Source: Thermoprotei archaeon (GTDB lineage Archaea > Thermoproteota > Thermoprotei > Gearchaeales > WAQG01). From it: a stretch of DNA of 64,000 nucleotides. The stretch spans positions 24,634-88,633 of the forward strand of contig JBMFIF010000001.1 of NCBI GenBank assembly GCA_049976445.1, in the 5' to 3' direction. The first letter of the stretch is position 1, and the number at the start of each line of letters is the position of its first letter. Under the pieces are notes generated by a model that was given only the letters and a program-made list of their open reading frames with translations, ran no database searches and was not told the origin of the DNA. This document shows positions 3,827 to 19,909 of this stretch, piece by piece. The translations under genes were made by a program, and so were the position numbers.

Positions 3827-3845
3827 TTCTTCTATATTATTAAGG

Positions 3846-3938
3846 GGGCCGTAGTCTAGTTTGGTCTAGGAAGTTTAAAAAACCTAGAGTACCAGGCTCG
3901 GGCCCTGGAGATCGCCGGTTCAAATCCGGCCGGCCCCA
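3846..3938 (+). tRNA. tRNA-Pro (anticodon CGG) with an ~18-nt non-canonical intron in the D-stem 3' strand
   Basis: Acceptor is GGGGCCG/CGGCCCC plus discriminator A, followed by U8. D-arm is GUCU-AGUUUGGUCUA-GGAU once the intron AGUUUAAAAAACCUAGAG is removed. Anticodon arm is CCAGG-CUCGGGC-CCUGG (CGG). Variable loop is AGAUC and the T-arm is GCCGG-UUCAAAU-CCGGC. The intron forms a CUAGG...CCUAG hairpin across the junction. No CCA is encoded. Confidence 0.75.
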
Positions 3939-4031
3939 CTATATTAATGGTCGTCAGCAGCTCAATTAATCTAATTAAGAACAGGTTTCTCTAAGTAGTA
4001 GGACTTATATATTTTTTAAACGATAAATAAC

Positions 4032-5867
4032 TTGACCATTATGAAAAAGGCATATTATAGAACAATTATCAGTAGTATTATATTATTACTCATTATAATA
4101 ACATTAATAAGTAATGTTAATGTAGCCGCAGGAAAAACAGTGACTGCAGTGAGACCTACATTATTACAAAGATTTTATATGAATTCTACAAGTACTCAAT
4201 CAGACTTTAATGACCCATTTTTTGCTTTTGGAAGGGACCCGAGACCAAATCTTAGTACTAGTGGATATTGGAGTTGGCAAGATTATCCGTATAGTGTACC
4301 ATATGTAACTCCGCAAACTATTAAAATATTCACAAACGTTGCATCAAATGATATAACAAAGACGGGATATCCTCCATTAATAACAAGTAAAATTGTTAAC
4401 TTACCTTCAGGTAGTTATTCTAAAATATTGTTAAGGGTTGATGTACAATTAAAGAGTGTAATGCCTAGTAGATTAGCAGTAAATTATGATAGAGCACTCT
4501 GGATATTTGTAGATGGGGTACCACTTCTCATAGGGACAACAGCACAACGATATAGTTATACTGTAATATCGGATGTAACATTCTTATATCATCTTTTAAC
4601 TGGTACTCATAACTTTACGTTTGTACTTATAAATTATGTGATACCAAGTCTTGGACTTACTGGATATTTTATAGCAAATGTTACATTACTTTATTACCCT
4701 GGTGAAAAACCATCAAACATTGCGACAGACGTAGTACCATTATGGTCAAGTGGAATAAATAATTGGAGGTCTGGAGTTGCTTGGGCTGTACTTACATCAT
4801 CGAAGAATATAGCATTACAAAACGTGACAATACCAGGGAACATAACAAAAGCATATCTATTGCTTTATACAGAAGGCGCTTCGTATGATGAGTTTTGGTG
4901 GTCTAACATACCTACAAATCGTGAAGTCTTGGTTTATAGTGATAGTAAGTTAATAGCAGTATCACAACCGTTTCCAATAATTTACACAGGTGGTATAAAT
5001 CCGTTCATGTGGAGACCAGTACCAGGAATAAACACTTATGCATTCCAACCATTATTAATAGATATAACACCATATATACCATTCATCATCGGAACTCATA
5101 CCATAAAAGTCACTATAACTAATAACCAAAATTATTGGCTAGTCGGAGGAGCATTGCTACTTACCAAAACAAATACAACAGTAAGCTATAGGTTCTTAGG
5201 CGACAGCCCACAACTAATAGCAAATAAAACAACAAGCACAACACCAACTACAACTATATTCAATAATACAATGACATATACGAACACTGCATCACTAAAT
5301 ATTACAATAGGCTCACAAACAGTCACTTACAAAACAGAGTATAAGCTCAATTTGAACGCTATTCAATCATATAATGATATATGGTGGAATTCAACAGTAA
5401 CTCAAACATGGTATTATAAAAGTAACTGGTTAAATAAAACAGAATCCTCACGATCGTATTCATCATTAAACGTGAACTACGGTGAGATAATACAAGTATA
5501 CGGCGATATAAGTAAAGCATCGACATCGAATCCTGTACCAGCAACCTTTAGCCTTATAGCTGATCTTAACCATAAATATGTAACAGAAACAGAGCACACA
5601 AATGCAACATCACAAGTTGCTACAGTTCATGCAGAACACGTCACATCAAATTCAATATTAGCAGGAACATTAGTATTCATAAGCCCAACAGGAGCAATAA
5701 TAACAGGTATCACAACACTTAGTAGTGTAACATCAAAATCGTTAAAAACTGAAGAAACACAAAACAGTATAAAATTTGTATCATTCATGAGAGATACAGT
5801 TGGAGGAAACTATTATCCACCACTTACGTATGAAATATTCGTAGATGTGATCTCAGTAAAGTGGTAA
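4032..5867 (+). CDS. Membrane-anchored, Thr/Ser-rich extracellular glycoprotein (hypothetical surface protein)
   Basis: There is an N-terminal TM/signal anchor (IISSIILLLIIITLISNV). The protein has very many N-x-S/T sequons and Thr-rich linkers (NKTTSTTPTTTIFNNTMTYTNT), typical of Sulfolobales surface glycoproteins. Confidence 0.5.
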   Translation: MTIMKKAYYRTIISSIILLLIIITLISNVNVAAGKTVTAVRPTLLQRFYMNSTSTQSDFNDPFFAFGRDPRPNLSTSGYWSWQDYPYSVPYVTPQTIKIFTNVASNDITKTGYPPLITSKIVNLPSGSYSKILLRVDVQLKSVMPSRLAVNYDRALWIFVDGVPLLIGTTAQRYSYTVISDVTFLYHLLTGTHNFTFVLINYVIPSLGLTGYFIANVTLLYYPGEKPSNIATDVVPLWSSGINNWRSGVAWAVLTSSKNIALQNVTIPGNITKAYLLLYTEGASYDEFWWSNIPTNREVLVYSDSKLIAVSQPFPIIYTGGINPFMWRPVPGINTYAFQPLLIDITPYIPFIIGTHTIKVTITNNQNYWLVGGALLLTKTNTTVSYRFLGDSPQLIANKTTSTTPTTTIFNNTMTYTNTASLNITIGSQTVTYKTEYKLNLNAIQSYNDIWWNSTVTQTWYYKSNWLNKTESSRSYSSLNVNYGEIIQVYGDISKASTSNPVPATFSLIADLNHKYVTETEHTNATSQVATVHAEHVTSNSILAGTLVFISPTGAIITGITTLSSVTSKSLKTEETQNSIKFVSFMRDTVGGNYYPPLTYEIFVDVISVKW

Positions 5868-5944: not shown

Positions 5945-6255
5945 CCCCCGAATTTATTCATAGAGATGAAGGACTCTAAAAACTATTATGAGAGGATCCC
6001 TCCACCTCCAGGTCTGCGCCCGGTAAGATTTTCCCTCGCTAATGCCCACAGAGCTTAAGCCTAATACTGGGCGTGGCATTGAGTAGTTCCGGCCGCAGGA
6101 GTCCATACTAAGGAGACATACATACGTGCTTCTAAGCTCTGTGGGCATAACCTAGTGAGCTGTTTTTGGCTCCTGGTTGTAGCTAGTCGGCCTTTGCATC
6201 GATACCATTATCCTAAGCTTTCGACTGAAGTCAGGAGCGTCTGACTTGTTTAGGA
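5945..6255. ncRNA. GC-rich (~50% GC) structured non-coding island of unknown identity; candidate stable RNA (RNase P RNA or another ~300-nt RNA); strand unresolved
   Basis: GC content rises sharply against the AT-rich background. A long imperfect helix pairs 6043-6059 (GCCCACAGAGCUUAAG) with 6129-6148 (CUUcUAAGCUCUGUGGGC) and encloses about 70 nt. A perfect 7-bp hairpin AAGUCAG-GAGCGU-CUGACUU lies at about 6228-6248. TATA-like boxes are present on both flanks. The only overlapping ORF (5954-6148) is weak. Confidence 0.35.
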
Positions 6256-6267
6256 ATTTTATAATAG

Positions 6268-6383
6268 TGGGGCCGCGGGGAGTTTCACCCTTTTCAGGGT
6301 TTTGAACCCCGGATCACCAGCGTTCCGGGAATAGGGGTATTCACCCCAGGCTGGCATCCTAATCCAGGCTGAACGACGGCCCC
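6268..6383 (-). tRNA. tRNA-Pro (anticodon GGG) with two introns: a canonical 37/38 intron (21 nt) and a T-loop 59/60 intron (19 nt)
   Basis: The minus-strand RNA reads as follows. Acceptor GGGGCCG, then U8 C9. D-arm GUUC-AGCCUGGAUUA-GGAU, then G26. Anticodon stem CCAGC / loop CUGGGG[UGAAUACCCCUAUUCCCGGAA]C / stem GCUGG. Variable loop UGAUC. T-stem CGGGG, T-loop UUCAAA[ACCCUGAAAAGGGUGAAAC]U, T-stem CCCCG. Acceptor 3' strand CGGCCCC plus discriminator A. After intron removal every arm is canonical. The D-arm and anticodon loop are closely related to the tRNA-Pro(CGG) at 3846. Confidence 0.7.
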
Positions 6384-6483
6384 GACTAAATTATTTATCT
6401 CGTAATAGTATTTAACTTTTATTGAGATTTACCTAAGATAGGTCAAGTTTTTAGCAATTCATAATATAAAAAATTAAAGATTT

Positions 6484-8475
6484 TTATTTTCCTTTAAATT
6501 TTGGTTTTCGCTTTTCAAGAAATGCACTCACACCTTCTACTACATCGTCTGTGCTGAAAAGCAGTCCAAAGAGGCTCGCTTCATATGCTAAGCCTGTCCA
6601 TATATTTGATTCAAGTCCAAAGTTTATTGCGTATTTGGCTGCCATGAGGGCCATTGGTGGTTTTTCTGCTAGCTTTAGTGCAAATCTGCGTGCTTCTTCT
6701 TCAAGCTTTTCTGGTGGTACTACATTGTTGACTAACCCTATTTTTAGGGCTTCATTTGCTGATATCATATCACCTGTGAAAATTATTTCTTTAGCCTTGC
6801 TACTTCCTGTTAATCTTGATAATCTTTGTGTCCCTCCTGCGCCTGGTATGAAACCAAGGTTTATTTCTGGTTGTCCTAGCTGTGCTGTTTCGGAGGCTAT
6901 TCTTATATCACCACTCATTGCCATTTCGAGACCTCCGCCCAATGCGTATCCATTTATGGCTATTATTATTGGTTTTGTGTAATATTCTATTTTGTTTAGA
7001 ATCTCTTGGAATTTTCTAGAAAATATTGCTGCTTTAACTGGGGTAACTCCCATAAAACCTGTTACATCAGCTCCTGCACTAAATGCTCTTCCAGAACCTG
7101 TTAATATTATGACTCTTATTCTTTCATCTTCTTCTATTTCATCTAATATTGTGTTTAATTCTTTTAGCATATCTATGTTTATTGCGTTTAAGCGTTCTGG
7201 TCTATTGAGTACTATCCATGCTAATGGTGGTTCGAGTTTTAATAAAATTGTGGAAAGCTTTCTTTCTTCAACGACGCCATATTCGTAAAATCCTTTTCCT
7301 GTTTTTCTTCCAAGTTTTCCTTCGTTAACCATTTGTTTAAGTAGTGGATCGGGCGTGTATTCTTCCCATCCTGTCATGTTTTTGAGGTTTTCGAGTGTAT
7401 TTACTACACGGTCTATACCGTATTCATCTGCATATTCTAGAATACCTTTGGGGTATCCTAATCCTAGTTTGCATGCTTTATCTATATCATCTCTGCTAGC
7501 TATTCCTTCTCTGAGTAACCATGATGCTTCGTTTATTGCAGGAGCAATTACCATTAGTGGATCTACTTTTTCTGCTTTTTCTTTTGGTATTTCTGGTCGA
7601 GCATATTTACCTGGTGCTGGATAGGTGTAAAAACCTTTTCCTGTTTTCATTCCTAATTCGTTTGCTTTAAATTTCTCTTCAAATAATGGACATGGATGAG
7701 CCACGTATCCCCGTTCGCTCATTGCTTTAAACACGAAGTAGAAAACATCTATTCCACTATAATCAGCCAATTCGAATGCTCCCATAGGGAAACCTAATTT
7801 GTAACGTACTGTCGCATCTACTTCAATAATATCAGCTTGTTTGTTAGCGACTATCCAGCATGCAGCATTAAGTAATCTTCCTAGTATTCTATTTACTATG
7901 AAACCAGGTACATCTTTTTTCACGATAACTGGTTGTTTTCCCAACTTCTTTGCTAATTCATACGTTATTTTTACCGTATCATCACTAGTTTTTTGACCCT
8001 TTACAACTTCAACCAATGGCATTAACGGTGGTGGATTAAAGAAGTGCATGCCGACAACTTTTTCAGGTCTATTTGTAGCATTGGATATCTCTGTTATAGG
8101 GAGACTGCTTGTATTTGTAGCGAGTATTGCATGTGGTGGTAAAATCTTGTCAGCTCTGGAGAATACATCTTTTTTGAGATCTAATTTTTCAGGTACTGCT
8201 TCTATCATAAAGTCTGCGTTCTTAACAGCTTCATCAAATGATAACGTGGTATGTATTCTAGAGAGGATGGAGTCAATGTTTTCTTTAATTTGCCCTTTTT
8301 CATATAATTTTCCAACACTCCATCTAATTTTTTCTATTGCGTTTTTTAGAAATTCTTCGGCTATATCGGTTACCCAAACTTCGTATCCGGCTAATGCAGC
8401 TACCTCTGCTATTCCGTGTCCCATTGTACCAGCGCCTATTACTGCAATTTTTTTAATTTGTTCAATACTCAACAT
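6484..8475 (-). CDS. Bifunctional 3-hydroxyacyl-CoA dehydrogenase / enoyl-CoA hydratase (FadB-like fusion)
   Basis: The N-terminal Rossmann motif IAVIGAGTMGHGIAEVAALAG marks a 3-hydroxyacyl-CoA dehydrogenase. The C-terminal half (LNRPERLNAIN...GGGLEMAM) is a crotonase-fold hydratase. Confidence 0.85.
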   Translation of the reverse strand: MLSIEQIKKIAVIGAGTMGHGIAEVAALAGYEVWVTDIAEEFLKNAIEKIRWSVGKLYEKGQIKENIDSILSRIHTTLSFDEAVKNADFMIEAVPEKLDLKKDVFSRADKILPPHAILATNTSSLPITEISNATNRPEKVVGMHFFNPPPLMPLVEVVKGQKTSDDTVKITYELAKKLGKQPVIVKKDVPGFIVNRILGRLLNAACWIVANKQADIIEVDATVRYKLGFPMGAFELADYSGIDVFYFVFKAMSERGYVAHPCPLFEEKFKANELGMKTGKGFYTYPAPGKYARPEIPKEKAEKVDPLMVIAPAINEASWLLREGIASRDDIDKACKLGLGYPKGILEYADEYGIDRVVNTLENLKNMTGWEEYTPDPLLKQMVNEGKLGRKTGKGFYEYGVVEERKLSTILLKLEPPLAWIVLNRPERLNAINIDMLKELNTILDEIEEDERIRVIILTGSGRAFSAGADVTGFMGVTPVKAAIFSRKFQEILNKIEYYTKPIIIAINGYALGGGLEMAMSGDIRIASETAQLGQPEINLGFIPGAGGTQRLSRLTGSSKAKEIIFTGDMISANEALKIGLVNNVVPPEKLEEEARRFALKLAEKPPMALMAAKYAINFGLESNIWTGLAYEASLFGLLFSTDDVVEGVSAFLEKRKPKFKGK

Positions 8476-8485
8476 CTTACACCTC

Positions 8486-9694
8486 CTATATCATATCAAT
8501 ACTAGTTCCAAATACTTGTCTTAATAGGCTTCTGATAACTGTTATTCTTTGTATGTCATTTGCTCCTTCATAAATTGTTGTTATTAGAGCATCTCTTAAG
8601 TATCTTTCAACTCCTGCTTCTTGATCAACACCAACTCCGCCATGGATTTTTATTGCCAATGCTGAAGCTTTTTCTGCTACTTCAGTAGCATACATTTTAG
8701 CTAGTGAAGCTGCCATTATGGCTTCAGGTCGTTGCGCGTCTGTTAATGTGGCTGCCCAGTAAGTAAGCATGCGAACTGCCTCAAGTTCTGTTAACATGTC
8801 TGCTAGTTTAAAAGCTATTCCCTCGAATGAGATTATTGGTCTTTCGAATGCATATCGTTGTAACGCATAGTTTAGTGATTTCTCAAATACCGCTTGTGCG
8901 ATACCTACACCTTGAGCAGCAATGCCAATCCTTCCATGATCATATGTTGTAACAGCAACTTTGAATCCTTCTCCTTCCTTACCTAGAACGTTTTCCTCAG
9001 GTACTTTTACATCATCAAGTATTACTTCGTTAGGTTGCTCACCTTTTAGTCCTATTACATTGAATTTTGACCCAATTTTTACACCTGGCCAATCAGCTTC
9101 TATTATGAAGAATGTTAATCCCTTCCATCTTTCTTTTCTGCTTGGTGGTGGACTTGTTCTTGCTGAAACTACTAAATATTTAGCTCTGTCTGCGCCTGTT
9201 ATGAAGATTTTTCTACCATTGATTATCCAGTAGTTTCCCTCTTTTTTAGCTGTAGCTTGTATACCTGCAACATCACTACCTGCGGCAGGTTCTGTATTTG
9301 CATGGGCCGCAAAAACTTCACCTCTGGCAATTGGTGGTATATACTTCTTTTTTTGTTCTTCAGTACCAAAAATGAGCACTGGCATTGTAAATAAGTGGTT
9401 TACCGCGATTTTTGTTGCAAATGCTGGTGAAATTCTTGAAAGTTCTTCCATAAGTATGACAAGCATCATTGCACCTCCACCTTGTCCATCGTATTCTGGT
9501 GGAATTCCGACACCCATTAGTCCCAATTCTTTTGCTCTGTTGATAAGTTCTTCTGGTATTGTATTTGTTTTTTCTATTTCCATAACTTTTGGAGCTATTT
9601 CATTTTCAGCGAATTGTCTTATCATTTTTCTGAACATTTCATGTTCGTTTGTTAGTTCTACTTTAAAGTCTAAGATATTATTAAAGGGGAACAA
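8486..9694 (-). CDS. Acyl-CoA dehydrogenase
   Basis: Full-length ACAD fold with a C-terminal catalytic-base region (YEGANDIQR); 402 aa. Confidence 0.85.
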   Translation of the reverse strand: MFPFNNILDFKVELTNEHEMFRKMIRQFAENEIAPKVMEIEKTNTIPEELINRAKELGLMGVGIPPEYDGQGGGAMMLVILMEELSRISPAFATKIAVNHLFTMPVLIFGTEEQKKKYIPPIARGEVFAAHANTEPAAGSDVAGIQATAKKEGNYWIINGRKIFITGADRAKYLVVSARTSPPPSRKERWKGLTFFIIEADWPGVKIGSKFNVIGLKGEQPNEVILDDVKVPEENVLGKEGEGFKVAVTTYDHGRIGIAAQGVGIAQAVFEKSLNYALQRYAFERPIISFEGIAFKLADMLTELEAVRMLTYWAATLTDAQRPEAIMAASLAKMYATEVAEKASALAIKIHGGVGVDQEAGVERYLRDALITTIYEGANDIQRITVIRSLLRQVFGTSIDMI

Positions 9695-9747
9695 ATATTA
9701 TCTCCTCCACATAAATACTTGTCTATACATGTTTAAAAACTATTCGT

Positions 9748-9808
9748 TTACTGGTTCGAGACTGTCCACTTATTATGTGATAGTGATGTTGTGGTTGATA
9801 GCTTATCT
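9748..9808. mobile_element. 61-bp MITE-like element, copy 1: 11-bp terminal inverted repeats GAGACTGTCCA/TGGACAGTCTC, flanked by 8-bp direct repeats ACTGGTTC
   Basis: The element has perfect 11-bp TIRs and a conserved core (cttattatgt...gatgttgtggttgat). It is flanked by an exact 8-bp duplication at 9740-9747 and 9809-9816. A second, ~88% identical copy with its own 8-bp duplication lies at 28671-28731. Confidence 0.6.
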
Positions 9809-10387
9809 GGACAGTCTCACTGGTTCTAATTCGTAAGTTAAATATCCCTCAGGTTCACGTTTTGTTACTACAACTCTAACTTTCATTCCTACTCTTAATT
9901 TTTTAGGGTCGGTCTCTCGTACCCATGCTGTAATGTTAATTCCTTCTTTTAGCCTAGCTATACCTACTGTATAATCATCGTAGTGTGAAAAGCTGTTTGG
10001 TTTTACGTTTATTATTGTGTAAGTGAGTAGTTCTCCTTCATTACTTAATTCAACCCATTCTACGTCTGATTTTCTGCATTTGGGACAATCAATCTGTGGC
10101 GGAAAATAGAGTGCCCCGCATTGTTTACATTTTGTTGCATAAAGTTTTCCATCCATTAATCCATCGAAGAATTTTCTGATTTTATCAACGCTTATTACAT
10201 ATTTTAATGTTAATTCTCGTTGGTCAATCCATTGTGCAGCTCCGCTTTTCATGTCTGGCACAACTGGTAATCCCGTTGATTTCTTTATACTTTCAACAAA
10301 TTCGTTAAACTGTTTTGTTGCTTCTTCGGTCTGTTCCTTCTGCGTTTTCTTTTTTTCAACTTTCTGCTGAGTGCTCATGATATTCAC
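9803..10387 (-). CDS. DUF35 Zn-ribbon/OB-fold protein (thiolase partner) with extended N-terminus; last codons supplied by the MITE-like element
   Basis: The Zn-ribbon CKQCGALYFPPQIDCPKCR is followed by an OB-fold. The gene overlaps the downstream thiolase by 4 nt. The terminal codons (V)RLSR* are encoded by the right arm of the 61-bp element. Confidence 0.75.
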   Translation of the reverse strand: MNIMSTQQKVEKKKTQKEQTEEATKQFNEFVESIKKSTGLPVVPDMKSGAAQWIDQRELTLKYVISVDKIRKFFDGLMDGKLYATKCKQCGALYFPPQIDCPKCRKSDVEWVELSNEGELLTYTIINVKPNSFSHYDDYTVGIARLKEGINITAWVRETDPKKLRVGMKVRVVVTKREPEGYLTYELEPVRLSR

Positions 10388-11586
10388 CTCTTAGGCTTAT
10401 CAAGAGAGAAAATTGTGACATATGCATAATGGCCTGTTCCACCTACATTATGAGCTATTGCCATACCATTTTTAATAGGTGCTTGACGTTCTTTTTCTAC
10501 TTCTTGTCTTAATTGTTTTGTGAGTTCTACAGCCATGCTGACTCCTGTTGCTGCTATGGGATGGCCTTTCGCTTTTAAACCGCCACTAAGATTGACTGGT
10601 ATGACGCCTCCAATGTAAGTCTGCTTCTCTCTGATTAATTTTACTGCTTCGCCTCTTTTTACAAACCCCAGATCCTCATACGCGAGTAATTCAGCTATAG
10701 TGAAACAGTCATGGACTTCCGCTACATCAAAGTTCTTTACGGGATCGGCTTCATTTATGCCAGCCTTTTTGTAAGCCATTTTAGCTGCTTCAACGGCGGC
10801 TCTTAAGCTAAGAAAATTATCGCGCCTGCTTAAATTAGCAGTATCATTTGCATAACCGATAGCTTTAATCCAGACAGGAGTGTCTGTAATTTTTTTAGCA
10901 ATTTCTTTACTCGCTAGTATTACTGCAGCTGAACCATCAGTTATAGGTGAACAATCAAGTAACTTTAAAGGCCATGCAATGTATCTAGATCGCATACACT
11001 CTTCTACAGTAATTTCCTTTTGAAATTGTGCTTTAGGATTTCTTGCACCATAATAATGGTTTTTGACTGCGACTTGACATAGATCCTCTTCGGTAGCTCC
11101 ATACTTAGACATGTATGCTGTTGCATAAAGAGCATAATATCCTGGAAAGGTAAGTCCGAAATTTTCGAATTCCCAAAAATAATTTCCAGCCCTACCAATA
11201 AACTCTACTACAGTTGGTGTTGGAGATTCATTCATTTTTTCGACACCCACAACTAATGCTATGTTTGCCTCTCCACTAGCTATCATATCATGTCCAAGTT
11301 TTAATGCCGCACTACCTGATGCACATGCAGCTTCAACTCTGACAGTACCCTTAGGTACAAGGTCACTATATTCTCCAACGACTACAGCAGGTAGTGGCTC
11401 ACTACTCCATGCACCAACGTTTGAGGTAACATAATAATCTATATCTTTTTGATCTATACCAGCGTTTTCAATTGCTTGTTTTATGCTTTCCCATGCAAGT
11501 TCTGCAATGTTTACATCAGTTCGTACTCCAAATTTAGAATGCCCAACACCTATTATAGCCACATTCCTACCCAAGAAAAACACCAC
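10384..11586 (-). CDS. Thiolase (SCP-x/acetyl-CoA acetyltransferase-like, archaeal DUF35-associated type)
   Basis: Thiolase fold with active-site Cys context (VEAACASGSAALK) and C-terminal motifs (NVGGTGHY); 400 aa. Confidence 0.85.
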   Translation of the reverse strand: MVFFLGRNVAIIGVGHSKFGVRTDVNIAELAWESIKQAIENAGIDQKDIDYYVTSNVGAWSSEPLPAVVVGEYSDLVPKGTVRVEAACASGSAALKLGHDMIASGEANIALVVGVEKMNESPTPTVVEFIGRAGNYFWEFENFGLTFPGYYALYATAYMSKYGATEEDLCQVAVKNHYYGARNPKAQFQKEITVEECMRSRYIAWPLKLLDCSPITDGSAAVILASKEIAKKITDTPVWIKAIGYANDTANLSRRDNFLSLRAAVEAAKMAYKKAGINEADPVKNFDVAEVHDCFTIAELLAYEDLGFVKRGEAVKLIREKQTYIGGVIPVNLSGGLKAKGHPIAATGVSMAVELTKQLRQEVEKERQAPIKNGMAIAHNVGGTGHYAYVTIFSLDKPKR

Positions 11587-11756
11587 TATAAATAATGTAT
11601 TAGATACATTATAAAGCTATCCTAGAATTCTATATCATCAAAGAAAATACGAAGCATATATACTAAACTCAGTATTATTTATGCTACTTTATCTAGACAC
11701 TTTTTATTCATGAAATTAGTGGTTAAATATAATAATATGATAAAGCAATATTTTAA

Positions 11757-12104
11757 ATGGTGTTGAACATGTCTGAAGATATCAAATCTTTAATACAAAC
11801 AGTCTATGAAAAAGCTAAATTAAAGATGGGGAGTGAAATGGCGGGTTGGAATAAAGTGTTTCAGTTTAATATAGAAGGTGGAGAACCATTTTATATAGAG
11901 TTTAAGCAGGGGAATGTGAATGTTGTTCCGGGTTCTCACAAATCTCCTACAGCAACACTTATTATGAGCAAAGAAACTCTTATTAAAATATTGAAAGGTG
12001 AATTAGATTCTATGGCGGCATTCATTAGAGGTCAAATGAAAATTACAGGAAACGTGATAGAGACTACATCGTTAAGAAAAATGATAGAAGCCGCAAAATC
12101 ATAA
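11757..12104 (+). CDS. SCP2 sterol-carrier/lipid-transfer domain protein
   Basis: 115 aa with a C-terminal SCP2 signature (AAFIRGQMKITGNVIETTSLRKM). Confidence 0.65.
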   Translation: MVLNMSEDIKSLIQTVYEKAKLKMGSEMAGWNKVFQFNIEGGEPFYIEFKQGNVNVVPGSHKSPTATLIMSKETLIKILKGELDSMAAFIRGQMKITGNVIETTSLRKMIEAAKS

Positions 12105-12132
12105 TTATTTTATTTTTTATTGTTCTTTATTT
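12105..12132 (+). terminator. Oligo-T tract immediately after the SCP2 stop (archaeal intrinsic terminator-like)
   Basis: The sequence ttattttattttttattgttctttattt lies directly downstream of the stop codon. Confidence 0.3.
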
Positions 12133-12301
12133 AATAAATCAGATGAAAGTGTTCAGGTTCGAAATTTATCCTAGGTTAATAATTTTAATTCAAAAATCAA
12201 TACATTTAATATAAAACAACATTTCATTATTTTTTCTTAAAATTATTAATACATAATAAAAAACTTTATAATCGTAGATTTCTATGTAATACTGAGGTAT
12301 C

Positions 12302-13114
12302 ATGGTTAATGTAGCTGTAATGGTTAAGGCATCACTAGATGCCAACATGATTAGAGTTGATAGTTCTGGTAAACTTCTTATTGATGAGATACCTTTGGCA
12401 ATCAGTGAGTATGATAGGAATGCTGTTGAAGAAGCTGTAAGAATAAAGGAAAAATTTGGTGGAAAGATTGCAGTTTTTTCAGTTGTTACTTGGGGACCAT
12501 TAGCGAAACGTATTAACGATACTGAATCAGTATTGCGAGAAGCACTAGCCATGGGAGCTGACGAAGGATATATGATTGCTGATGAGAGTTTAATAAACGC
12601 AAACCCGCTTCAGACAGCCATAGCACTTGCATCAGCAGTTAAAAAAACAGGTAATTATGATCTTTATCTTACGGGTGAGGCATCAATGGATGTTATTTCT
12701 GCACAAATTGCTTCCAGAATTGGAACGATCTTAAACCTTCCAACAATAACATTTGCTCGAGCTATAGAACTTGATATAGGAAATAAAAAAGTTAAGGTTC
12801 TTCGTGATCTGGAGGATTCATTACAATGGGTTGAGGCACCATTACCTGCAGTAATCAGTGTGACTGGTGAAATTAATAAAGCTAGGTTACCGATGCTCTT
12901 GCAAATACGGAGAGCATTTGCAAAACCTCTTAAAAAATTTACATTAAATGACTTAAACATACAATTGCCTGACGTTGGACATAAGCGCGAATCGGTAAGA
13001 TTATTAATAGTTTCTAGGAAAAATATAATGATAGAAGCAAGCACTCTAGAAGAAGTATCAGAAAAGTTAATCTCCAAATTGATTGAGGAGGGTGTTATAA
13101 GACCAAAAATATGA
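12302..13114 (+). CDS. etfB: Electron transfer flavoprotein beta subunit
   Basis: The MVNVAVMVKASLD N-terminus and the AMP-binding fold are typical of EtfB/FixA. Confidence 0.85.
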   Translation: MVNVAVMVKASLDANMIRVDSSGKLLIDEIPLAISEYDRNAVEEAVRIKEKFGGKIAVFSVVTWGPLAKRINDTESVLREALAMGADEGYMIADESLINANPLQTAIALASAVKKTGNYDLYLTGEASMDVISAQIASRIGTILNLPTITFARAIELDIGNKKVKVLRDLEDSLQWVEAPLPAVISVTGEINKARLPMLLQIRRAFAKPLKKFTLNDLNIQLPDVGHKRESVRLLIVSRKNIMIEASTLEEVSEKLISKLIEEGVIRPKI

Positions 13115-13127
13115 GGAGATGATATGA

Positions 13128-14063
13128 ATGGTTGAAACTGTCATAGTTTTTGGAGAAAGACCTTCATTATTAGTAGATGCTTCAGGACTTGTAGCAGAAC
13201 TATCACGAAATGGATTTAGTACCAATATGATAGGCATCACAATTAGTGATGGATCGGTGAATGAAGCAATACACTATGGTTTTGATAAACTGTATGTTAT
13301 TGAAGGAACGGTTTTACCTGATCAAATATACGAGATCATCTCTAAGATTTTTGATGATGTGAAACCGAGGTTATTAATCGGCCCTGCAACAAAAACTAGT
13401 AACGATGTTCTTGCTCGTGTTTCAGCTAAGCATAATTTACCAATGCTAACAGAGGTTATTTCAGTTTCATTAGATGGTACTAGTATTGTTTTTGAACGAA
13501 ATATTTTAGGAGGAAGAGCTGTAAGTCGAGAGGTAACATTAAGACAAGTGGCCGTTACTGTACCTATTAAGAAATTTAAGCCTTTTGAAGAAACTCAAAA
13601 GATTGCTGCCGTTGAAAAAATCTCGCCTCCAGTCTCTAATGTTAAGCTAGTAAGTTTTGAAGAGAAGAAAAAAGGTGGCGTAAATATTGAAGCTGCTGAT
13701 ATTGTTGTTGGTGTAGGAAGAGGATTTAGATCGAAGGATGATTTAAAATTGGCTTTTGATTTAGCAACAATCATAGATGCTCAAGTTGGATGCAGTAGGC
13801 CTATTGCTGCAGATCTTAAATGGTTACCTGAGGATGTGTGGATTGGAATTTCTAGCAAGAAGATACGGCCAAAACTTTATATAGCAATAGGAATATCTGG
13901 TGCTCCTCAACATATCTCTGCGGTAGATGCAAAAGTAATAGTTTCTATAAATAAAGATAAAAATGCACCAATATTCAAGTATTCAGATTATGGTGTTGTC
14001 GCGGATTTATACCAATTTCTTCCTGTATTTATTAAAAAACTTAAAGAAAAAACAAGCAAGTGA
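13128..14063 (+). CDS. etfA: Electron transfer flavoprotein alpha subunit
   Basis: A C-terminal FAD-binding region (VGVGRGF...GCSRP...IGISGAPQHISAV) typical of EtfA/FixB. Confidence 0.85.
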   Translation: MVETVIVFGERPSLLVDASGLVAELSRNGFSTNMIGITISDGSVNEAIHYGFDKLYVIEGTVLPDQIYEIISKIFDDVKPRLLIGPATKTSNDVLARVSAKHNLPMLTEVISVSLDGTSIVFERNILGGRAVSREVTLRQVAVTVPIKKFKPFEETQKIAAVEKISPPVSNVKLVSFEEKKKGGVNIEAADIVVGVGRGFRSKDDLKLAFDLATIIDAQVGCSRPIAADLKWLPEDVWIGISSKKIRPKLYIAIGISGAPQHISAVDAKVIVSINKDKNAPIFKYSDYGVVADLYQFLPVFIKKLKEKTSK

Positions 14064-16111
14064 GAGAAATGTATGTATTTTTTATTCAAAGTATCTTATA
14101 TATATTCGAGGGTATTAAACATTTTAACTTTGTTGATGATCTGGAACCTCTTGTGTACATATACACCATAATAGTTGCTGTGCTATTGCTTTATGGTGTT
14201 TATAGAAGTTTTAAATTATGGACTTATGGAGGACAAAGTATAAGATTTGATCGTTTTGGAAAACGATTGTTAAGACTTATCAAATATGGTGTACTTCAAG
14301 CGAAAGTTATAAGGCAGAAACAAGGAGGTACTATTCATGTATTTATTTATATTGGTATGATAGGTCTTTTTATAGGTACCATACTTCGTGCAGTAGAGTA
14401 TGATATATATTTACGATTTTTTGGTTCAAGATTCCTTGTTAACATTGTGTATTTAATATTTAAGCTCATGGTTAATATTTCAGGCGTTTTGGCTATTATA
14501 GGCATAGTATTAGCATTAATTAGACGAATATTCAGAACGTACAGAGATTTACCTACATCTCGAGAGGATTACCTAATTTTGATTGATCTGCTGATAATAA
14601 TAGTAACAGGTTTTATACTAGATGCGGTTAATACTTTAGATTATAGATTAGAATGGATTGACAATTGGGATATAATAGGCTTCCCTCTTGCTTTCTTCAT
14701 TAGAAGTTTCTTCGATAGTAATTATATTGAATTTTATAGAATTCTTTGGGTGTTTCATTTAACATTAGCACTTGCTAGCATTGCTCTCATACCTTTTACG
14801 AAACTCTATCATATGTTCATTAGTGGCGTTCTAAATACATTCTTTTCCAGGTTAGAAGAACCAGTCATTGCAGCTAACAAGCCAATAGTCAATATGGATA
14901 AGTTAGTAGAAGAAGGTAGGCCTATAGGAGCTGTAACGCTTTTAGATTTATCTTGGAAGCAACGAATGGATTTTGATGCTTGTACTCAATGTGCACGATG
15001 TCATAATTCATGTCCAGCAAATCTTACTGGAAAACCATTAAGTCCAATGATGGTAATGCTTGACGCAAAAAAGGAATTACATAAAAAGAATTTTGATAAA
15101 AAATTAGTACCAAGTTCTATAAATCCAGATGTTATATGGTCTTGTGTAACTTGTGGTGCATGTATTGAAGTATGTCCTGTCTTAATAAATCAAGTTGAGA
15201 CTATTATGGATCTCAGACGTGGAGTGTATTCTTCTGGAGAAAATACACCATCTGAATTACAACAAGTTTCGTATAATATAATGAGAACTGGAAATCCTTA
15301 TGGTTATAATCCTGCTGATAGGGAAACATGGTTACGTTCAGTAGTGTCTGAACTAGGTATTGAGATCGCACGTGAAGATACTGAATATGAATATATATAT
15401 TGGTTGGGTTGTAATGCAAGTTATGATCCTAATATCAGAAACGTTGCCTATAGCTTAATGAGTATTCTTAAAAAAGCTAAGATAAATTTTGCAGTAATTT
15501 TGGATGAGATTTGTTGTGGTGAGCCTGCAAGAAGAATAGGTGATGAATATCTTTTTAGAGATATTGTACAGAAGAATTCAGACATATTAGGAAGATATAA
15601 ATTTAAGAAATTATTAGTTAATTGTCCTCACGGATATAACAATTTTAAACATGAGTATGCTCAATATGGAGTAAAGATAGAGGTTGAACATCATACAATG
15701 TTGCTACAAAAACTTATAAAAGATCATAAGATAAGCCCTGAAAAAGTAAAAGAAACTGTAACATATCATGATCCATGTTACTTAGCGCGATGGAACCATG
15801 TTTTTAATGAACCAAGGGATGTGATAAAAAGCGTGGCTGATATTAAAGAGATGAGTAGAATAAAACAAAACACATTTTGTTGTGGTGGTGGAGGAGGTCA
15901 TGCTTTCTTTGATATAAAGAAAGGAGAAAGAATAAGCAAGGTAAGAATGAAAGAGGCTATAGCGACTGGTGTAAATAAAGTAGTTGTTTCCTGTCCTTTC
16001 TGTAATATAATGCTCCGCAGTGAGGCTTCAGAATTTAACATGGAAGTGATTGATATAGCAGAGCTTTTAAATCAGTCTTTAAATAAATCTGAAGGTGCTC
16101 CAAAGAAATAA
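14060..16111 (+). CDS. Membrane-bound Fe-S oxidoreductase: N-terminal polytopic (HdrE/NarI-like, His-containing) domain fused to an HdrD/GlpC-like 2x[4Fe-4S] domain and Cys-rich CCG domains. Candidate ETF-linked quinone reductase
   Basis: About 6 TM helices carry conserved His residues. Ferredoxin motifs CTQCARCHNSCP and CVTCGACIEVCP are present, plus two CCG-type cysteine clusters (CCGEPARR, FCCGGGGGHAF). Its start overlaps the etfA stop (translational coupling). Confidence 0.7.
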   Translation: MREMYVFFIQSILYIFEGIKHFNFVDDLEPLVYIYTIIVAVLLLYGVYRSFKLWTYGGQSIRFDRFGKRLLRLIKYGVLQAKVIRQKQGGTIHVFIYIGMIGLFIGTILRAVEYDIYLRFFGSRFLVNIVYLIFKLMVNISGVLAIIGIVLALIRRIFRTYRDLPTSREDYLILIDLLIIIVTGFILDAVNTLDYRLEWIDNWDIIGFPLAFFIRSFFDSNYIEFYRILWVFHLTLALASIALIPFTKLYHMFISGVLNTFFSRLEEPVIAANKPIVNMDKLVEEGRPIGAVTLLDLSWKQRMDFDACTQCARCHNSCPANLTGKPLSPMMVMLDAKKELHKKNFDKKLVPSSINPDVIWSCVTCGACIEVCPVLINQVETIMDLRRGVYSSGENTPSELQQVSYNIMRTGNPYGYNPADRETWLRSVVSELGIEIAREDTEYEYIYWLGCNASYDPNIRNVAYSLMSILKKAKINFAVILDEICCGEPARRIGDEYLFRDIVQKNSDILGRYKFKKLLVNCPHGYNNFKHEYAQYGVKIEVEHHTMLLQKLIKDHKISPEKVKETVTYHDPCYLARWNHVFNEPRDVIKSVADIKEMSRIKQNTFCCGGGGGHAFFDIKKGERISKVRMKEAIATGVNKVVVSCPFCNIMLRSEASEFNMEVIDIAELLNQSLNKSEGAPKK

Positions 16112-16119
16112 GAAATATT

Positions 16120-16539
16120 TTACATTAAATATTTTATTGAACTTATTGCCATCATAACCTCAAGCAATTTATTAAATAAACCTGTTTGAGTTACTCTGCC
16201 TATGATCTTTCCTTTTTCAACTACATACAGCCGTCTTATGTTTTTCTCGGTCATGAGTTTCCATGCTTCTGCAAATGTTGCATCAGGACTGATTGTTATC
16301 AGAGGTGATGTCATTATTTCTTTTAATAACGTTTTATTCATGTCAAGACCTTTTGCTACTACTCTCCTCAATAAATCTCTATCTGTCACCACACCGGACG
16401 GTAGATCATTAATACTCACAACTATAGACCATACTTGATTTTCTAGCATAGCTTTTAAAGCATCCATTGCTGAAAGATTACCATCTAATATTACAACACC
16501 GCTTTCCATTACATCACGAACTTTTAATGTGACTGGCAT
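16120..16539 (-). CDS. CBS-domain pair protein
   Basis: 139 aa with two CBS repeats (VVILDGNLS..., VVEKGKIIGRVTQTGL). Confidence 0.7.
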   Translation of the reverse strand: MPVTLKVRDVMESGVVILDGNLSAMDALKAMLENQVWSIVVSINDLPSGVVTDRDLLRRVVAKGLDMNKTLLKEIMTSPLITISPDATFAEAWKLMTEKNIRRLYVVEKGKIIGRVTQTGLFNKLLEVMMAISSIKYLM

Positions 16540-16578
16540 CGTATCACCAAGATATATTGATTATAAAAATATATAAAG

Positions 16579-17286
16579 TTAAATACCCAAGTAGCTTTCT
16601 TTTACTTTCGGATTAATTAAAAGTTCTTTTCCGCTTCCACTTAGAGCTATTCTTCCATTCTCAATTATATATGCTTTATCAGCTATTTTTAAAGCATTCT
16701 CAACGTGTTGTTCAACAAGTATTATAGTAATACCATACTCTTTGTTTAATTTTTGAATTAGATCAACAATCTGAAGCACAATTTTTGGTGCCAATCCAGC
16801 TGATGGTTCATCTAACATTAATAATTTAGGTCTCCCCATTAGTCCTCTAGCTATTGCAAGCATTTGCTGTTCTCCACCACTTAATGTACCGGCAAGTTGT
16901 TTTTCCCTTTCTTTTAAAATTGGAAATAGTTCATATACTATACTTAACGTTTCGTTTATATGTTTTCTTGCTTCTTTAGTATAAGCGCCCATTAAAAGGT
17001 TCTCATAAACACTCATCTCTGGAAATAACCTTCTTCCCTCAGGCACTAATATTAATCCTAATTTCACTCTATCATGAGGAGGCAAGTATGTTATGTCTGT
17101 TTGTTCGTAAATTATTTTACCCTTTTTTAATTTATGTAAACCAGAAATGCATCTTATTAGGGTAGTTTTTCCAGCTCCGTTTGAACCTAATATAGCAGTA
17201 ATCGTTCCTTTTTCAACAGTTAGGTTTATCCCCCAAAGTACTGTTACTTCACCATAACCTGCCTCAAGATTCTCTACTGAGAGCAT
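16579..17286 (-). CDS. livF: Branched-chain amino acid ABC transporter ATP-binding protein (LivF type)
   Basis: Walker A GSNGAGKTT, ABC signature LSGGEQQ and Walker B LLMLDEP are all present. Confidence 0.85.
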   Translation of the reverse strand: MLSVENLEAGYGEVTVLWGINLTVEKGTITAILGSNGAGKTTLIRCISGLHKLKKGKIIYEQTDITYLPPHDRVKLGLILVPEGRRLFPEMSVYENLLMGAYTKEARKHINETLSIVYELFPILKEREKQLAGTLSGGEQQMLAIARGLMGRPKLLMLDEPSAGLAPKIVLQIVDLIQKLNKEYGITIILVEQHVENALKIADKAYIIENGRIALSGSGKELLINPKVKESYLGI

Positions 17287-18035
17287 TAAGTCTCACCTCG
17301 TGTGTTAATTGAACGCCCTAAATATGCTTCTATTACTTTAAGATCATTAGCGACTTCATTTGGTGTTCCTTCAGCAATTTTTATTCCATTACTAAACACT
17401 ATAATCCTTTCAGAAATTTTCATGATAGCTCTCATTATATGCTCAACGATTATAATAGTTAATCCTAATTCTTTTCTAATTCTTTTTATCATTTCAAGTG
17501 CACTATCAATTTCGGCTGGTGTAAGTCCGGCAAGTGTTTCGTCTAAAAGAAGGAGTTCAGGTTCTGAAGCTAAAGCTCTAGCTATTTCAAGCCTTCTTTT
17601 TTCTGGCATGTTAAGTAAACCAGCAGGTAAGTCTGCTTTATTAATTAAGCCTGTTACCTCTAAAACCTTCTCAACAGTTTTTGCTGCATCATAGGGAGTC
17701 TTAGCGTTGTATTTACCAAAAAGAGCACCAATCATAACATTATCCTTAACAGTCATGGTTGAAAACGGTTTAACTATTTGAAAGGTTCTTCCAATACCCA
17801 TTCTAGCTATTTTATGTGGAGGTAACCCTGTAATATCTACATTCTTAAATATTATTTTTCCTTCATCTGGCTTATAAATACCACTAATTACATTAAAGAA
17901 TGTTGTTTTTCCAGAACCATTAGGCCCAATAAGGCCTAATATTTCATTTTGGTTCACTTCAACGTTTATATTATTTAATGCTATAAGGCCCCCAAATTTT
18001 TTTACTATGCCTTTTGCCTCAAGAATAATGCTCAT
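17286..18035 (-). CDS. livG: Branched-chain amino acid ABC transporter ATP-binding protein (LivG type)
   Basis: Walker A GPNGSGKTT and Walker B LLLLDE are present, and the protein has LivG-type length. Confidence 0.85.
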   Translation of the reverse strand: MSIILEAKGIVKKFGGLIALNNINVEVNQNEILGLIGPNGSGKTTFFNVISGIYKPDEGKIIFKNVDITGLPPHKIARMGIGRTFQIVKPFSTMTVKDNVMIGALFGKYNAKTPYDAAKTVEKVLEVTGLINKADLPAGLLNMPEKRRLEIARALASEPELLLLDETLAGLTPAEIDSALEMIKRIRKELGLTIIIVEHIMRAIMKISERIIVFSNGIKIAEGTPNEVANDLKVIEAYLGRSINTRGET

Positions 18036-18039
18036 GATC

Positions 18040-18993
18040 TCACCTTAAGAATCTAAATTTTCTTGCAATCACACCCATAATACCTCTAGGCATGAAAAGA
18101 ACGAGCCCTATAAGTAGGACACCAAAGATTATTGGATGAATATTAGCAAAGGATACTAATGTTGTATATTCAATTGTATAAAGTATAATACCTCCTATTA
18201 GAGGGCCAATTATGGTACCTTGACCACCTAGCATCATAGCTACTAGCATTTTCACATTATAAGTCACATCGAAATAGCCTTCCGTACTTATATATACATG
18301 TAAAATACCAGAAATTCCACCAGCAATACCAGCAATAAATGCACTTAATGCATAGGCACTAAGTTTATAAAGCCGTGTGTTTACACCTAATGCTTCAGCT
18401 GCATCTTCATTTTCGTAAATAGATCTCAATCCATAGCCAAACTTAGAATTGCTAATGTATAAAGTCATAACCATAGTTATTAACAAAAGAATCCACATAG
18501 ATATGTAAGAAGATATCGGGTCATATTTTACGTATCTAGCTAATGGAATACCATACGATCCACCTAATGCTGCAGTATTACTTATTAAAACTTTCATGGC
18601 TTCGTTCATTCCAAGCGTAGCAATCGCAAAATAAGCACCTCTTACTTTGAGTATTGGAGTACCAATTAACAATGCAAAAGCAGATGCTATAATACCACCT
18701 ATTATTGAGAAGATATAGGGATTAATTTGTAACATATAGAAATTTTCTATAGCAACAGCTGTAGCATACGCACCAATACCATAAAAAACTATATGCCCGA
18801 AATCTACGTATCCAGTAAATCCTGTTATCATATTGATACTATATGTAAGTACTAAATATTCCAACATTATAAATAGTACTGGTGTGAAGACTGGAAATTC
18901 GATAAATAATATTATTGTTATTATTTCGAAGATTATAAGAATTAACACATCGGTCTTATTTAAATAAATCATTTCTTTAATATGTCTAAACAT
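18040..18993 (-). CDS. livM: Branched-chain amino acid ABC transporter permease (LivM type)
   Basis: Polytopic permease positioned within the liv operon. Confidence 0.8.
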   Translation of the reverse strand: MFRHIKEMIYLNKTDVLILIIFEIITIILFIEFPVFTPVLFIMLEYLVLTYSINMITGFTGYVDFGHIVFYGIGAYATAVAIENFYMLQINPYIFSIIGGIIASAFALLIGTPILKVRGAYFAIATLGMNEAMKVLISNTAALGGSYGIPLARYVKYDPISSYISMWILLLITMVMTLYISNSKFGYGLRSIYENEDAAEALGVNTRLYKLSAYALSAFIAGIAGGISGILHVYISTEGYFDVTYNVKMLVAMMLGGQGTIIGPLIGGIILYTIEYTTLVSFANIHPIIFGVLLIGLVLFMPRGIMGVIARKFRFLR

Positions 18994-18997
18994 AATT

Positions 18998-19861: not shown

Positions 19862-19909
19862 GGACTCTAATCACCACGTAAAAAATAAAAGAATTTTAAA
19901 TTATTTTCG

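Follow-up and report, generated by a model that had tools for sequence, protein, structure and literature searches.

A probable archaeal orthologue of the EtfD/EMO membrane ETF:quinone oxidoreductases, encoded with EtfBA beside a beta-oxidation gene set in a Thermoprotei archaeon

Background

The mycobacterial protein EtfD (Rv0338c in Mycobacterium tuberculosis, MSMEG_0690 in Mycobacterium smegmatis, PDB entry 9OJN) is an electron transfer flavoprotein (ETF):menaquinone oxidoreductase, as shown by genetics (PMC8593149) and by a cryo-EM structure combined with an activity assay (PMC13083937). This protein is functionally tied to EtfBA and to acyl-CoA dehydrogenases (ACAD), and Courbon et al., who solved the structure, demonstrated a coupling to the respiratory chain that depends on ETF (PMC13083937). 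The EMO protein of Syntrophus aciditrophicus belongs to the same family (PMC8805022), and in Syntrophomonas wolfei a DUF224 protein, the "EtfAB:quinone oxidoreductase" Swol_0698, is encoded after etfB and etfA (PMC3582634). Here, we analyze a 64,000-nucleotide stretch of DNA (hereafter, the window) from a Thermoprotei archaeon (assembly GCA_049976445.1, contig JBMFIF010000001.1, positions 24,634 to 88,633 of the forward strand), in which a divergent nine-gene module (window positions 6484-16111) ends in an etfB-etfA pair followed by a gene for a 683-aa membrane protein (14060..16111, plus strand, when read from GTG 14060).

Two further groups of enzymes provide the background for the comparison. 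Methanosarcina HdrDE resembles the membrane protein of the window in both halves, HdrE in the membrane domain and HdrD in the Fe-S domains, with CCG motifs in common, and EtfD itself overlays on an AlphaFold model of HdrDE (PMC13083937). The canonical ETF-QO (ETFDH) and FixCX/EtfCX, by contrast, are monotopic flavoproteins with flavin adenine dinucleotide (FAD) and a [4Fe-4S] cluster, which share the proposed reaction and no homology with the protein analyzed here. In archaea, beta-oxidation has been studied in Sulfolobus acidocaldarius, where the ETF:quinone oxidoreductase step is left uncharacterized in the portion of the study cited (bioRxiv 10.1101/2024.07.05.601840).

Identity and domain architecture of the membrane protein

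The 683-aa protein is probably an archaeal enzyme orthologous to the EtfD/EMO membrane ETF:quinone oxidoreductases. Its gene would share a transcript with those of its electron donor EtfBA and lies divergently from the beta-oxidation genes, whose products would supply it with electrons. This assignment is based on homology, fold, ligand conservation, operon structure and recurrent synteny; the cofactor content, the direction of electron flow from ETF to quinone, the identity of the quinone and the cluster that would accept electrons first are extrapolated from the bacterial enzymes.

A phmmer search against all PDB sequences identifies a sole strong match, to M. smegmatis EtfD (9ojn_A, E-value 2.6e-82, residues 64-678), followed by NarI, HdrC and HdrB at about 1e-5. 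An AlphaFold2 model built from 117 homologues (pLDDT 95.4, pTM 0.92) contains five long transmembrane helices (residues 26-54, 87-121, 128-158, 168-196 and 207-242), and a Foldseek search of the PDB with this model again retrieves 9ojn as the top hit (E-value 3e-36, TMq 0.82, TMt 0.76), with an alignment of 730 columns that covers the whole chain at about 27% identity. The family is large, counting 1580 cluster representatives (clustered at 50% identity) with an E-value of 1e-30 or lower, and the lengths of the best 150 of these are nearly all similar.

The domain composition was resolved with Pfam, which detects Nitrate_red_gam (residues 136-256), a 4Fe-4S dicluster (residues 303-374) and two CCG stretches. 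A single chain thus joins a NarI/HdrE-like five-helix cytochrome b domain (residues ~26-261, 14135..14842, plus strand; Nitrate_red_gam, E-value 8.3e-10), an HdrC-like ferredoxin domain with two cubane [4Fe-4S] clusters (14957..15193, plus strand; Fer4_8/9/10) and two HdrB-like CCG domains, which is the architecture of EtfD and EMO. The first CCG domain (D1; 15392..15649, plus strand) was delineated by alignment to EtfD and contains Cys451, Cys485, Cys486, Cys522, His524 and Gly525; the second (D2; 15758..16018, plus strand; best Pfam CCG stretch, residues 567-653) contains Cys573, 607, 608, 645 and 648. Loops at residues 55-86 and 155-168 are rich in Arg and Lys, so that the Fe-S domains are placed in the cytoplasm, on the same side as ETF.

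The original prediction, made before any database search, described this protein as an HdrDE-like Fe-S oxidoreductase fused to a heme-b-type domain and, from gene order, as a candidate analogue of ETF:quinone oxidoreductase. Pfam recovers the membrane domain, the two [4Fe-4S] clusters and the two CCG domains that it listed, and the structural model shows the membrane domain to be polytopic. The function it proposed is supported by the full-length homology to EtfD, by the conserved cofactor ligands and by the function of the bacterial family; the suggestion of novelty does not hold, the class being already described, and to that extent the label was an overstatement.

Cofactor ligands

The published ligands of M. 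smegmatis EtfD were transferred to the window protein through a HMMER alignment, and their conservation was assessed in 117 archaeal homologues. The axial ligands of heme b (His78 and His241 in M. smegmatis) correspond to His93 and His251, those of the cubane cluster D4 (Cys301, 304, 307 and 422) to Cys308, 311, 314 and 372, those of the cubane D3 (Cys311, 412, 415 and 418) to Cys318, 362, 365 and 368, and those of the noncubane D2 (Cys637, 672, 673, 709, 712 and His583) to Cys573, 607, 608, 645, 648 and His524. The heme histidine pair, all eight cubane cysteines and all six D2 ligands are thus retained, and each is invariant in the 117 homologues except Cys607, which is present in 116 of them; His93 and His251 are also kept in all full-length proteins from the genome loci described below. 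These two histidines are predicted to bind the b heme, and the D2 site appears to hold a complete ligand set for a noncubane [4Fe-4S] cluster, formed by the five cysteines of the second CCG domain and His524 of the "CPH" motif in the first. Arg313, the equivalent of M. smegmatis Arg306 that contacts a heme propionate, and Arg156 are likewise invariant in the 117 homologues.

A single heme b is predicted, as in the M. smegmatis structure and not two as reported for EMO, because the position of NarI His66 is occupied by the invariant Thr107. Among the four histidines of the Escherichia coli NarI diheme pattern (His56, 66, 187 and 205), three have counterparts: His233 and His251 align with NarI His187 and His205, and His93 lies one helical turn ahead of the NarI His56 position. 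Compared with EMO, which is reported to be diheme and to operate in a reverse redox loop (PMC8805022), the window protein would accordingly differ in heme number, a comparison drawn from the published description of EMO. His21 was considered as a ligand of a second heme and rejected as an essential one: it is present in 81% of the archaeal set, but other archaea have Tyr or Asn at this position, and the bacterial loci have hydrophobic residues. His233 (14756-14758; M. smegmatis His223) is invariant in the 117 homologues and in every locus that covers the position, bacterial loci included. The M. smegmatis structure, as described, does not have His223 among its heme ligands, and a text search of the paper gave no mention of this residue (PMC13083937). 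His233 may belong to the quinone site, given that it lies on the path from the heme to the outer side of the membrane.

The D1 site

The first CCG domain is where the window protein departs from the mycobacterial enzyme. In M. smegmatis, D1 is a linear [3Fe-4S] cluster held by Cys503, Cys538, Cys581 and Cys584, and Thr539 stands where HdrB has the cysteine that holds a fourth iron (PMC13083937). The HMMER alignment shows that the window protein keeps the first three of these ligands as Cys451, Cys485 and Cys522, has Gly525 in place of Cys584 and has Cys486 in place of Thr539. It therefore retains the cysteine that holds the fourth iron in Hdr and lacks the Hdr bridging cysteine. The family members FadF and DgcB are entirely devoid of D1 ligands (PMC13083937), and the linear [3Fe-4S] motif is therefore a mark of the mycobacterial subtype rather than of the family.

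The distribution of D1 states was surveyed in 196 sequences, comprising the 117 database homologues and proteins translated from genome loci (80 listed). The window type, CC...CPHG, accounts for 139 of the 196 sequences (about 70%), including every listed archaeal locus with adjacent etfBA. The mycobacterial type, C[T/S/N]...CPHC, was found in 33, including all 20 listed bacterial loci, Aeropyrum and some Acidilobaceae and Desulfurococcales, and the remaining 24 sequences, which include Bathyarchaeia loci, have the full Hdr-like set, CC...CPHC. The three-cysteine combination does not occur among the 196 sequences, compared with about 23 expected if the positions were independent, a figure that is no proper test given that the sequences are related. 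Both main states occur next to etfBA, and the ligand swap therefore leaves the partner unchanged. A mutual-information scan of a 197-sequence alignment was used to seek a ligand that compensates for Gly525; no His, Cys or Asp emerged that sets the Gly525 type apart, and the top columns were phylogenetic.

These patterns are compatible with the possibility, which we advance tentatively and regard as somewhat short of probable, that the archaeal EtfD clade that includes the window protein does without the linear [3Fe-4S] cluster of mycobacterial EtfD. The window-type site may instead hold a four-cysteine noncubane [4Fe-4S] cluster or adopt another geometry. If so, it would represent a step in evolution between the catalytic cluster of Hdr and the linear one of EtfD. 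The swap of D1 ligands is the sole feature of the locus that goes beyond published descriptions; it offers a natural series on how Hdr-type noncubane clusters became linear [3Fe-4S] clusters and bears on the question of which cluster takes electrons from ETF first.

Genomic association with etfBA

The original prediction proposed the co-occurrence of this fusion with etfAB as a check, to be refuted by a canonical ETF-QO elsewhere together with consistent association with other partners, such as lactate or glycolate oxidases. A survey of genomic contexts was based on 80 listed loci from species-representative genomes, a pattern-selected and phylogenetically non-independent set that is rich in metagenome-assembled genomes (MAGs) and to which the genome of the window does not belong. 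A locus was considered informative if each of its flanks measured at least 2.5 kb, and etfBA within 3 kb was counted as adjacent. By these measures, etfBA adjoins the homologue in 13 of the 44 informative archaeal loci listed, from Sulfolobales, Nitrososphaeria/'Geothermarchaeota' and other Thermoprotei, and in 16 of the 17 informative bacterial loci listed, from Chloroflexota and Actinomycetota, where the genes form a divergent pair in Dehalococcoidia and etfBA lies upstream on the same strand in Gaiellales and Thermoleophilia. [quoted passage not shown]

In archaea and bacteria, the recurrent neighbours of the homologues are etfBA or beta-oxidation genes; otherwise the gene stands alone. Redox partners of another kind, lactate and glycolate oxidases included, were not seen beside a homologue among the loci listed, so that the refuting pattern did not appear. 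For the stand-alone loci, the recurrent housekeeping neighbours were examined as operon partners and rejected, because DNA polymerase B, which lies upstream, and PAC2 and a 170-aa protein, which lie downstream, are all encoded on the other strand. In mycobacteria, etfD is likewise unlinked to etfBA, whereas the window gene sits in an etfB-etfA operon, in the order etfB-etfA-oxidoreductase that is also found in S. wolfei, where the same role, from ETF to (methyl)menaquinone, has been proposed.

The closest relative among those listed, GCA_038881895.1 (locus L086; 85% identity), has the identical nine-gene order and the same downstream genes. In GCA_002011085.2 (locus L087; homologue 52% identical, on a 1.58-Mb contig), the divergent module recurs, except that SCP2 and etfB are separated by an acyl-CoA synthetase gene, and loci L008, L012 and L019 also carry the module. 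In L087, this AMP-binding acyl-CoA synthetase (positions 6248-7990 of the locus) completes the pathway inside the module; the window module has no such gene.

Composition of the module

The module is divergent and spans 6484-16111; by Pfam and NCBIfam, four minus-strand genes can be named and the plus-strand arm starts with SCP2. The HCDH/ECH bifunctional protein (663 aa, 6484..8475, minus strand; 3HCDH_N 1.2e-70, 3HCDH 1.5e-56, ECH_1 2.2e-72) has the dehydrogenase at the N-terminus and the hydratase at the C-terminus, the inverse of bacterial FadB and the same order as in S. acidocaldarius Saci_1109 (bioRxiv 10.1101/2024.07.05.601840). Next to it are encoded an acyl-CoA dehydrogenase (402 aa, 8486..9694, minus strand; Pfam Acyl-CoA_dh_N/M/1, that is, the N, M and C domains), for which the top NCBIfam matches are short-chain ACAD/AcrC-like, all below cut-off, and which is the predicted electron donor to ETF; a DUF35/ChsH2-type protein with a zinc ribbon and an OB-fold (9803..10387, minus strand; zf-ChsH2 3.4e-13, OB_ChsH2_C 3.5e-19), the thiolase partner, which in the public annotation has a later start and 189 aa; and an SCP-x-type thiolase (400 aa, annotated as 396 aa; 10384..11586, minus strand; Thiolase_N, Thiolase_C_1), which scores 597.7 bits against NCBIfam PRK06064 (cut-off 420). 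The features of an archaeal beta-oxidation module of the S. acidocaldarius type, namely a fusion with N-terminal HCDH, an ACAD and a thiolase with a DUF35 partner, are all present by Pfam domain order.

On the plus strand, an SCP2 lipid/acyl-carrier-like protein (115 aa, annotated as 111 aa; 11757..12104; SCP2 2.8e-16), in the same first position in L086 and L087, is followed by EtfB (270 aa, 12302..13114; Pfam ETF 7.7e-31; PDB 6fah_B 4.9e-28, 1efv_B 6.1e-16), EtfA (311 aa, 13128..14063; ETF_alpha 1.3e-27, ETF 9.3e-14; PDB 5ol2_A 7.5e-34, 1efv_A 1.3e-31) and the membrane protein. The gene list of the original prediction (fadB fusion, acd, DUF35, SCP-x thiolase, SCP2, etfB-etfA and the 683-aa protein) is borne out by these assignments, and its statement that the etfA stop codon overlaps the start of the next gene depends on the start codon. 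From GTG 14060, the overlap is 4 nt (GTGA, with the etfA TGA at 14061-14063); from the annotated ATG 14069, which yields 680 aa, there is no overlap and the genes are 5 nt apart, so that the distance is -4 or +5 nt. ATG 14069 is probably the true start, being preceded by a Shine-Dalgarno-like GTGAG with a 5-nt spacer. As both readings leave the genes tightly packed, a single transcript for etfA and the membrane-protein gene is implied whichever start is used. An identical 680-aa protein (P0001) from the NCBI Thermoprotei MAG GCA_049970455.1 is annotated as a [quoted passage not shown] protein.

The cluster of S. acidocaldarius, Saci_1103-1126, likewise includes an HCDH(N)-ECH(C) fusion, ACAD, thiolase and DUF35 proteins (Saci_1109, 1123 and 1114 are described), and its ETF (Saci_0315) is an alpha-beta fusion encoded elsewhere, whereas the ETF of the window is split in two genes and linked to the EtfD-type oxidoreductase (bioRxiv 10.1101/2024.07.05.601840). 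The absence of a canonical ETF-QO, also part of the original prediction, is confirmed for the window: no ETF_QO or FixC-type flavoprotein was detected among its scanned open reading frames (ORFs) of at least 306 aa or in the precomputed Pfam annotation, and the ETF_QO/FixC FAD domain of Pfam was not found in the 683-aa protein. The other genes of the window are housekeeping genes of the arginine, carbamoyl-phosphate and shikimate pathways and ABC transporters.

Several observations on the module are given for completeness. The minus-strand arm was compared with loci L004, L008, L012, L019 and L056 (Pyrodictiaceae, Desulfurococcales, 'Geothermarchaeota' and Thermoprotei MAGs), with identities of 76-79% for the thiolase, 69-72% for ACAD, 70-72% for HCDH/ECH and 64-71% for the DUF35 protein; in the same comparison EtfD is 49-54% and EtfA/B 47-57% identical. 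The higher identity of the four-gene arm suggests lateral spread or a much stronger constraint. A gene for a CBS-pair protein, convergent with the EtfD-like gene and 9 nt past its stop codon, precedes five genes for a Liv-type ABC transporter of branched-chain amino acids (together 16120-21214, minus strand), and the same arrangement is present in L086. The Liv transporter and the SCP-x/DUF35 thiolase hint that branched-chain acyl-CoAs may be among the substrates, and the arrangement with the transporter that the module may act on acyl-CoAs derived from amino acids. A 13-nt direct repeat (AAAGCTATCCTAG at 11613-11625 and AAATTTATCCTAG at 12162-12174), with one copy in each intergenic region flanking SCP2, could be a common regulator site or a chance occurrence; neither regulatory motifs nor terminators rose above chance in a search around the divergent promoter.

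Alternative functions

Several observations weigh against the assignment of the membrane protein to ETF:quinone oxidoreduction. All functional experiments concern bacterial members of the family and none archaeal ones. The C-terminal disordered region of M. smegmatis EtfD, a tail of about 30 kDa in which AlphaFold3 predicts ETF binding, is absent from the window protein, and the menaquinone-site residues Phe85 and Phe230 are replaced by Met100 and Ser240 at positions that vary across the family. The D1 site, with Gly525 and Cys486, is unlike that of the structurally characterized enzyme and does not have the linear [3Fe-4S] motif. Among the informative archaeal loci listed, 31 of 44 have no ETF neighbour (Acidilobaceae, Desulfurococcales, Bathyarchaeia), and the adjacency is therefore lineage-specific. 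A FixCX or an ETF-QO may be encoded elsewhere in the genome, the scans having covered the window. Finally, EtfB scores 102 bits against structures of two-FAD (bifurcating) ETFs and 62-72 bits against classical ones (62 for human ETF-beta).

Electrons could also flow in the reverse direction, from quinol through ETF to enoyl-CoA by way of ACAD, either as "enoyl-CoA respiration" or to serve fatty-acid synthesis in a reductive step; EMO works in this direction when Syntrophus grows on crotonate. In S. aciditrophicus, the reaction of EMO can run both ways in vivo (PMC8805022), the thiolase/DUF35 pair is also part of a proposed archaeal fatty-acid synthase (bioRxiv 10.1101/2024.07.05.601840), and neither the lifestyle of the MAG nor the potential of its quinone settles the direction. 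Nevertheless, we consider this alternative unlikely, given that the S. acidocaldarius ACAD and ETF failed reductively in vitro (bioRxiv 10.1101/2024.07.05.601840), that the NAD-type (S)-specific HCDH/ECH fusion of the module is typical of the oxidative pathway and that the acyl-CoA synthetase within the GCA_002011085.2 module speaks against it. Moreover, reverse flow requires a low-potential quinone and a redox-loop partner, and no periplasmic formate dehydrogenase or hydrogenase is found among the annotated genes of the window.

A second alternative is a complex of EtfBA with the membrane protein that bifurcates or confurcates electrons in a quinone-dependent manner and is functionally analogous to EtfABCX/FixABCX, with the HdrDE-like protein in place of EtfCX. 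EtfB is closer to the two-FAD ETFs, namely CarD (6fah_B, 101.8 bits), 5ol2_B and Thermotoga maritima EtfABCX (7koe_A), than to the human or Paracoccus ETF (62-70 bits), the best NCBIfam matches of the ETF subunits are of the FixA/FixB and YdiQ/YdiR types, and the S. acidocaldarius ETF fusion oxidizes NADH (bioRxiv 10.1101/2024.07.05.601840). The bit-score gaps for EtfB are small, however, and the PDB scores of EtfA do not discriminate the ETF type; the module contains neither a ferredoxin nor a flavodoxin gene, the adjacent ACAD is an ordinary electron donor and the S. wolfei ETF that partners the DUF224 protein is reported to be of group I, non-bifurcating (PMC3582634). This possibility therefore appears quite improbable.

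A role as a thiol/heterodisulfide:quinone oxidoreductase like HdrDE or DsrMK, with an incidental placement after etfA, is highly improbable: the fold and motifs are Hdr-derived, the first CCG domain retains the Hdr-type CC doublet and many of the archaeal homologues listed stand away from ETF genes, but the substrate-displaceable bridging cysteine of Hdr is replaced by Gly525, the invariant His524 is the residue that in EtfD completes the coordination of D2 and renders it non-catalytic (PMC13083937), the NCBIfam models for Hdr, Dsr, Tmc and Hmc all score far below their cut-offs, homologues adjoin etfBA repeatedly in two domains of life and the neighbourhood lacks genes for thiol cofactors. 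In the same vein, HdrDE consists of two subunits with two complete CX31-39CCX35-36CXXC motifs, whereas the window protein is one fused chain that shares His524 with EtfD, has an ETF partner instead of methanogenesis genes and in its first CCG domain (C451-X33-CC-X35-C522-P-H-G) has lost the final cysteine.

Proposed electron path

Under the ETF:quinone oxidoreductase assignment, the acyl-CoA dehydrogenase (8486-9694) would oxidize an acyl-CoA with reduction of its own FAD and would be re-oxidized by EtfBA. Reduced ETF would then dock onto the membrane protein at its CCG domains, which face the cytoplasm, and electrons would pass from the clusters of these domains (D1/D2) through the two cubane [4Fe-4S] clusters to one b heme, which His93 and His251 would hold near the cytoplasmic face of the five-helix NarI-like domain and which would reduce the membrane quinone of the organism. 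HCDH/ECH and the thiolase/DUF35 pair would finish each turn of beta-oxidation.

Other features of the window

Three further observations concern the region upstream of the module. At 6023-6245 (minus strand), there is a full-length sub-threshold match to the Rfam HEARO RNA (RF02033; 45.9 bits against a gathering threshold of 83, window-wide E-value 3.3e-6), with a perfect 16-bp stem, in a GC-rich island (about 0.5, compared with about 0.25 around it) within a 616-bp ORF-free gap. HEARO is the omega-RNA of IscB/HNH nucleases; no IscB/HNH ORF lies beside the stretch, and no second copy was found in 85 loci or, by exact 24-mer search, in a metagenome collection. Directly 5' of it on the same strand, the segment 6270-6387 has a GC content of about 0.6, a perfect 7-bp acceptor-like stem GGGGCCG...CGGCCCC, the T-arm-like element GGGGUUCAAA and apparent inserts, and looks like a multi-intron tRNA, of the kind typical of Thermoprotei; ARAGORN and Rfam made no call here. 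At 3845-3941 (plus strand), ARAGORN predicts a 95-nt "tRNA-Phe (anticodon aaa)", accompanied by a sub-threshold Rfam match of the tmRNA/tRNA clan (31.7 bits), which is probably an intron-containing tRNA with a miscalled identity. Finally, a 611-aa protein with an N-terminal hydrophobic segment (4032-5867, plus strand) is assigned to PF12222 (PNGase A, peptide N-glycanase) in the precomputed Pfam annotation, a family better known in plants and fungi than in archaea.

Conclusions

The enzyme class to which the membrane protein is assigned is already characterized, and the window protein is an archaeal, operon-linked member of it; these findings do not overturn the current understanding. In this capacity, the protein would supply the ETF:quinone oxidoreductase step of beta-oxidation in thermophilic archaea, that is, Sulfolobales-like Thermoprotei and thermophilic Nitrososphaeria. 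The EtfD/EMO solution, known in Actinomycetota and syntrophic bacteria, would thus be used in both prokaryotic domains, and its operon form makes the partnership with ETF explicit.

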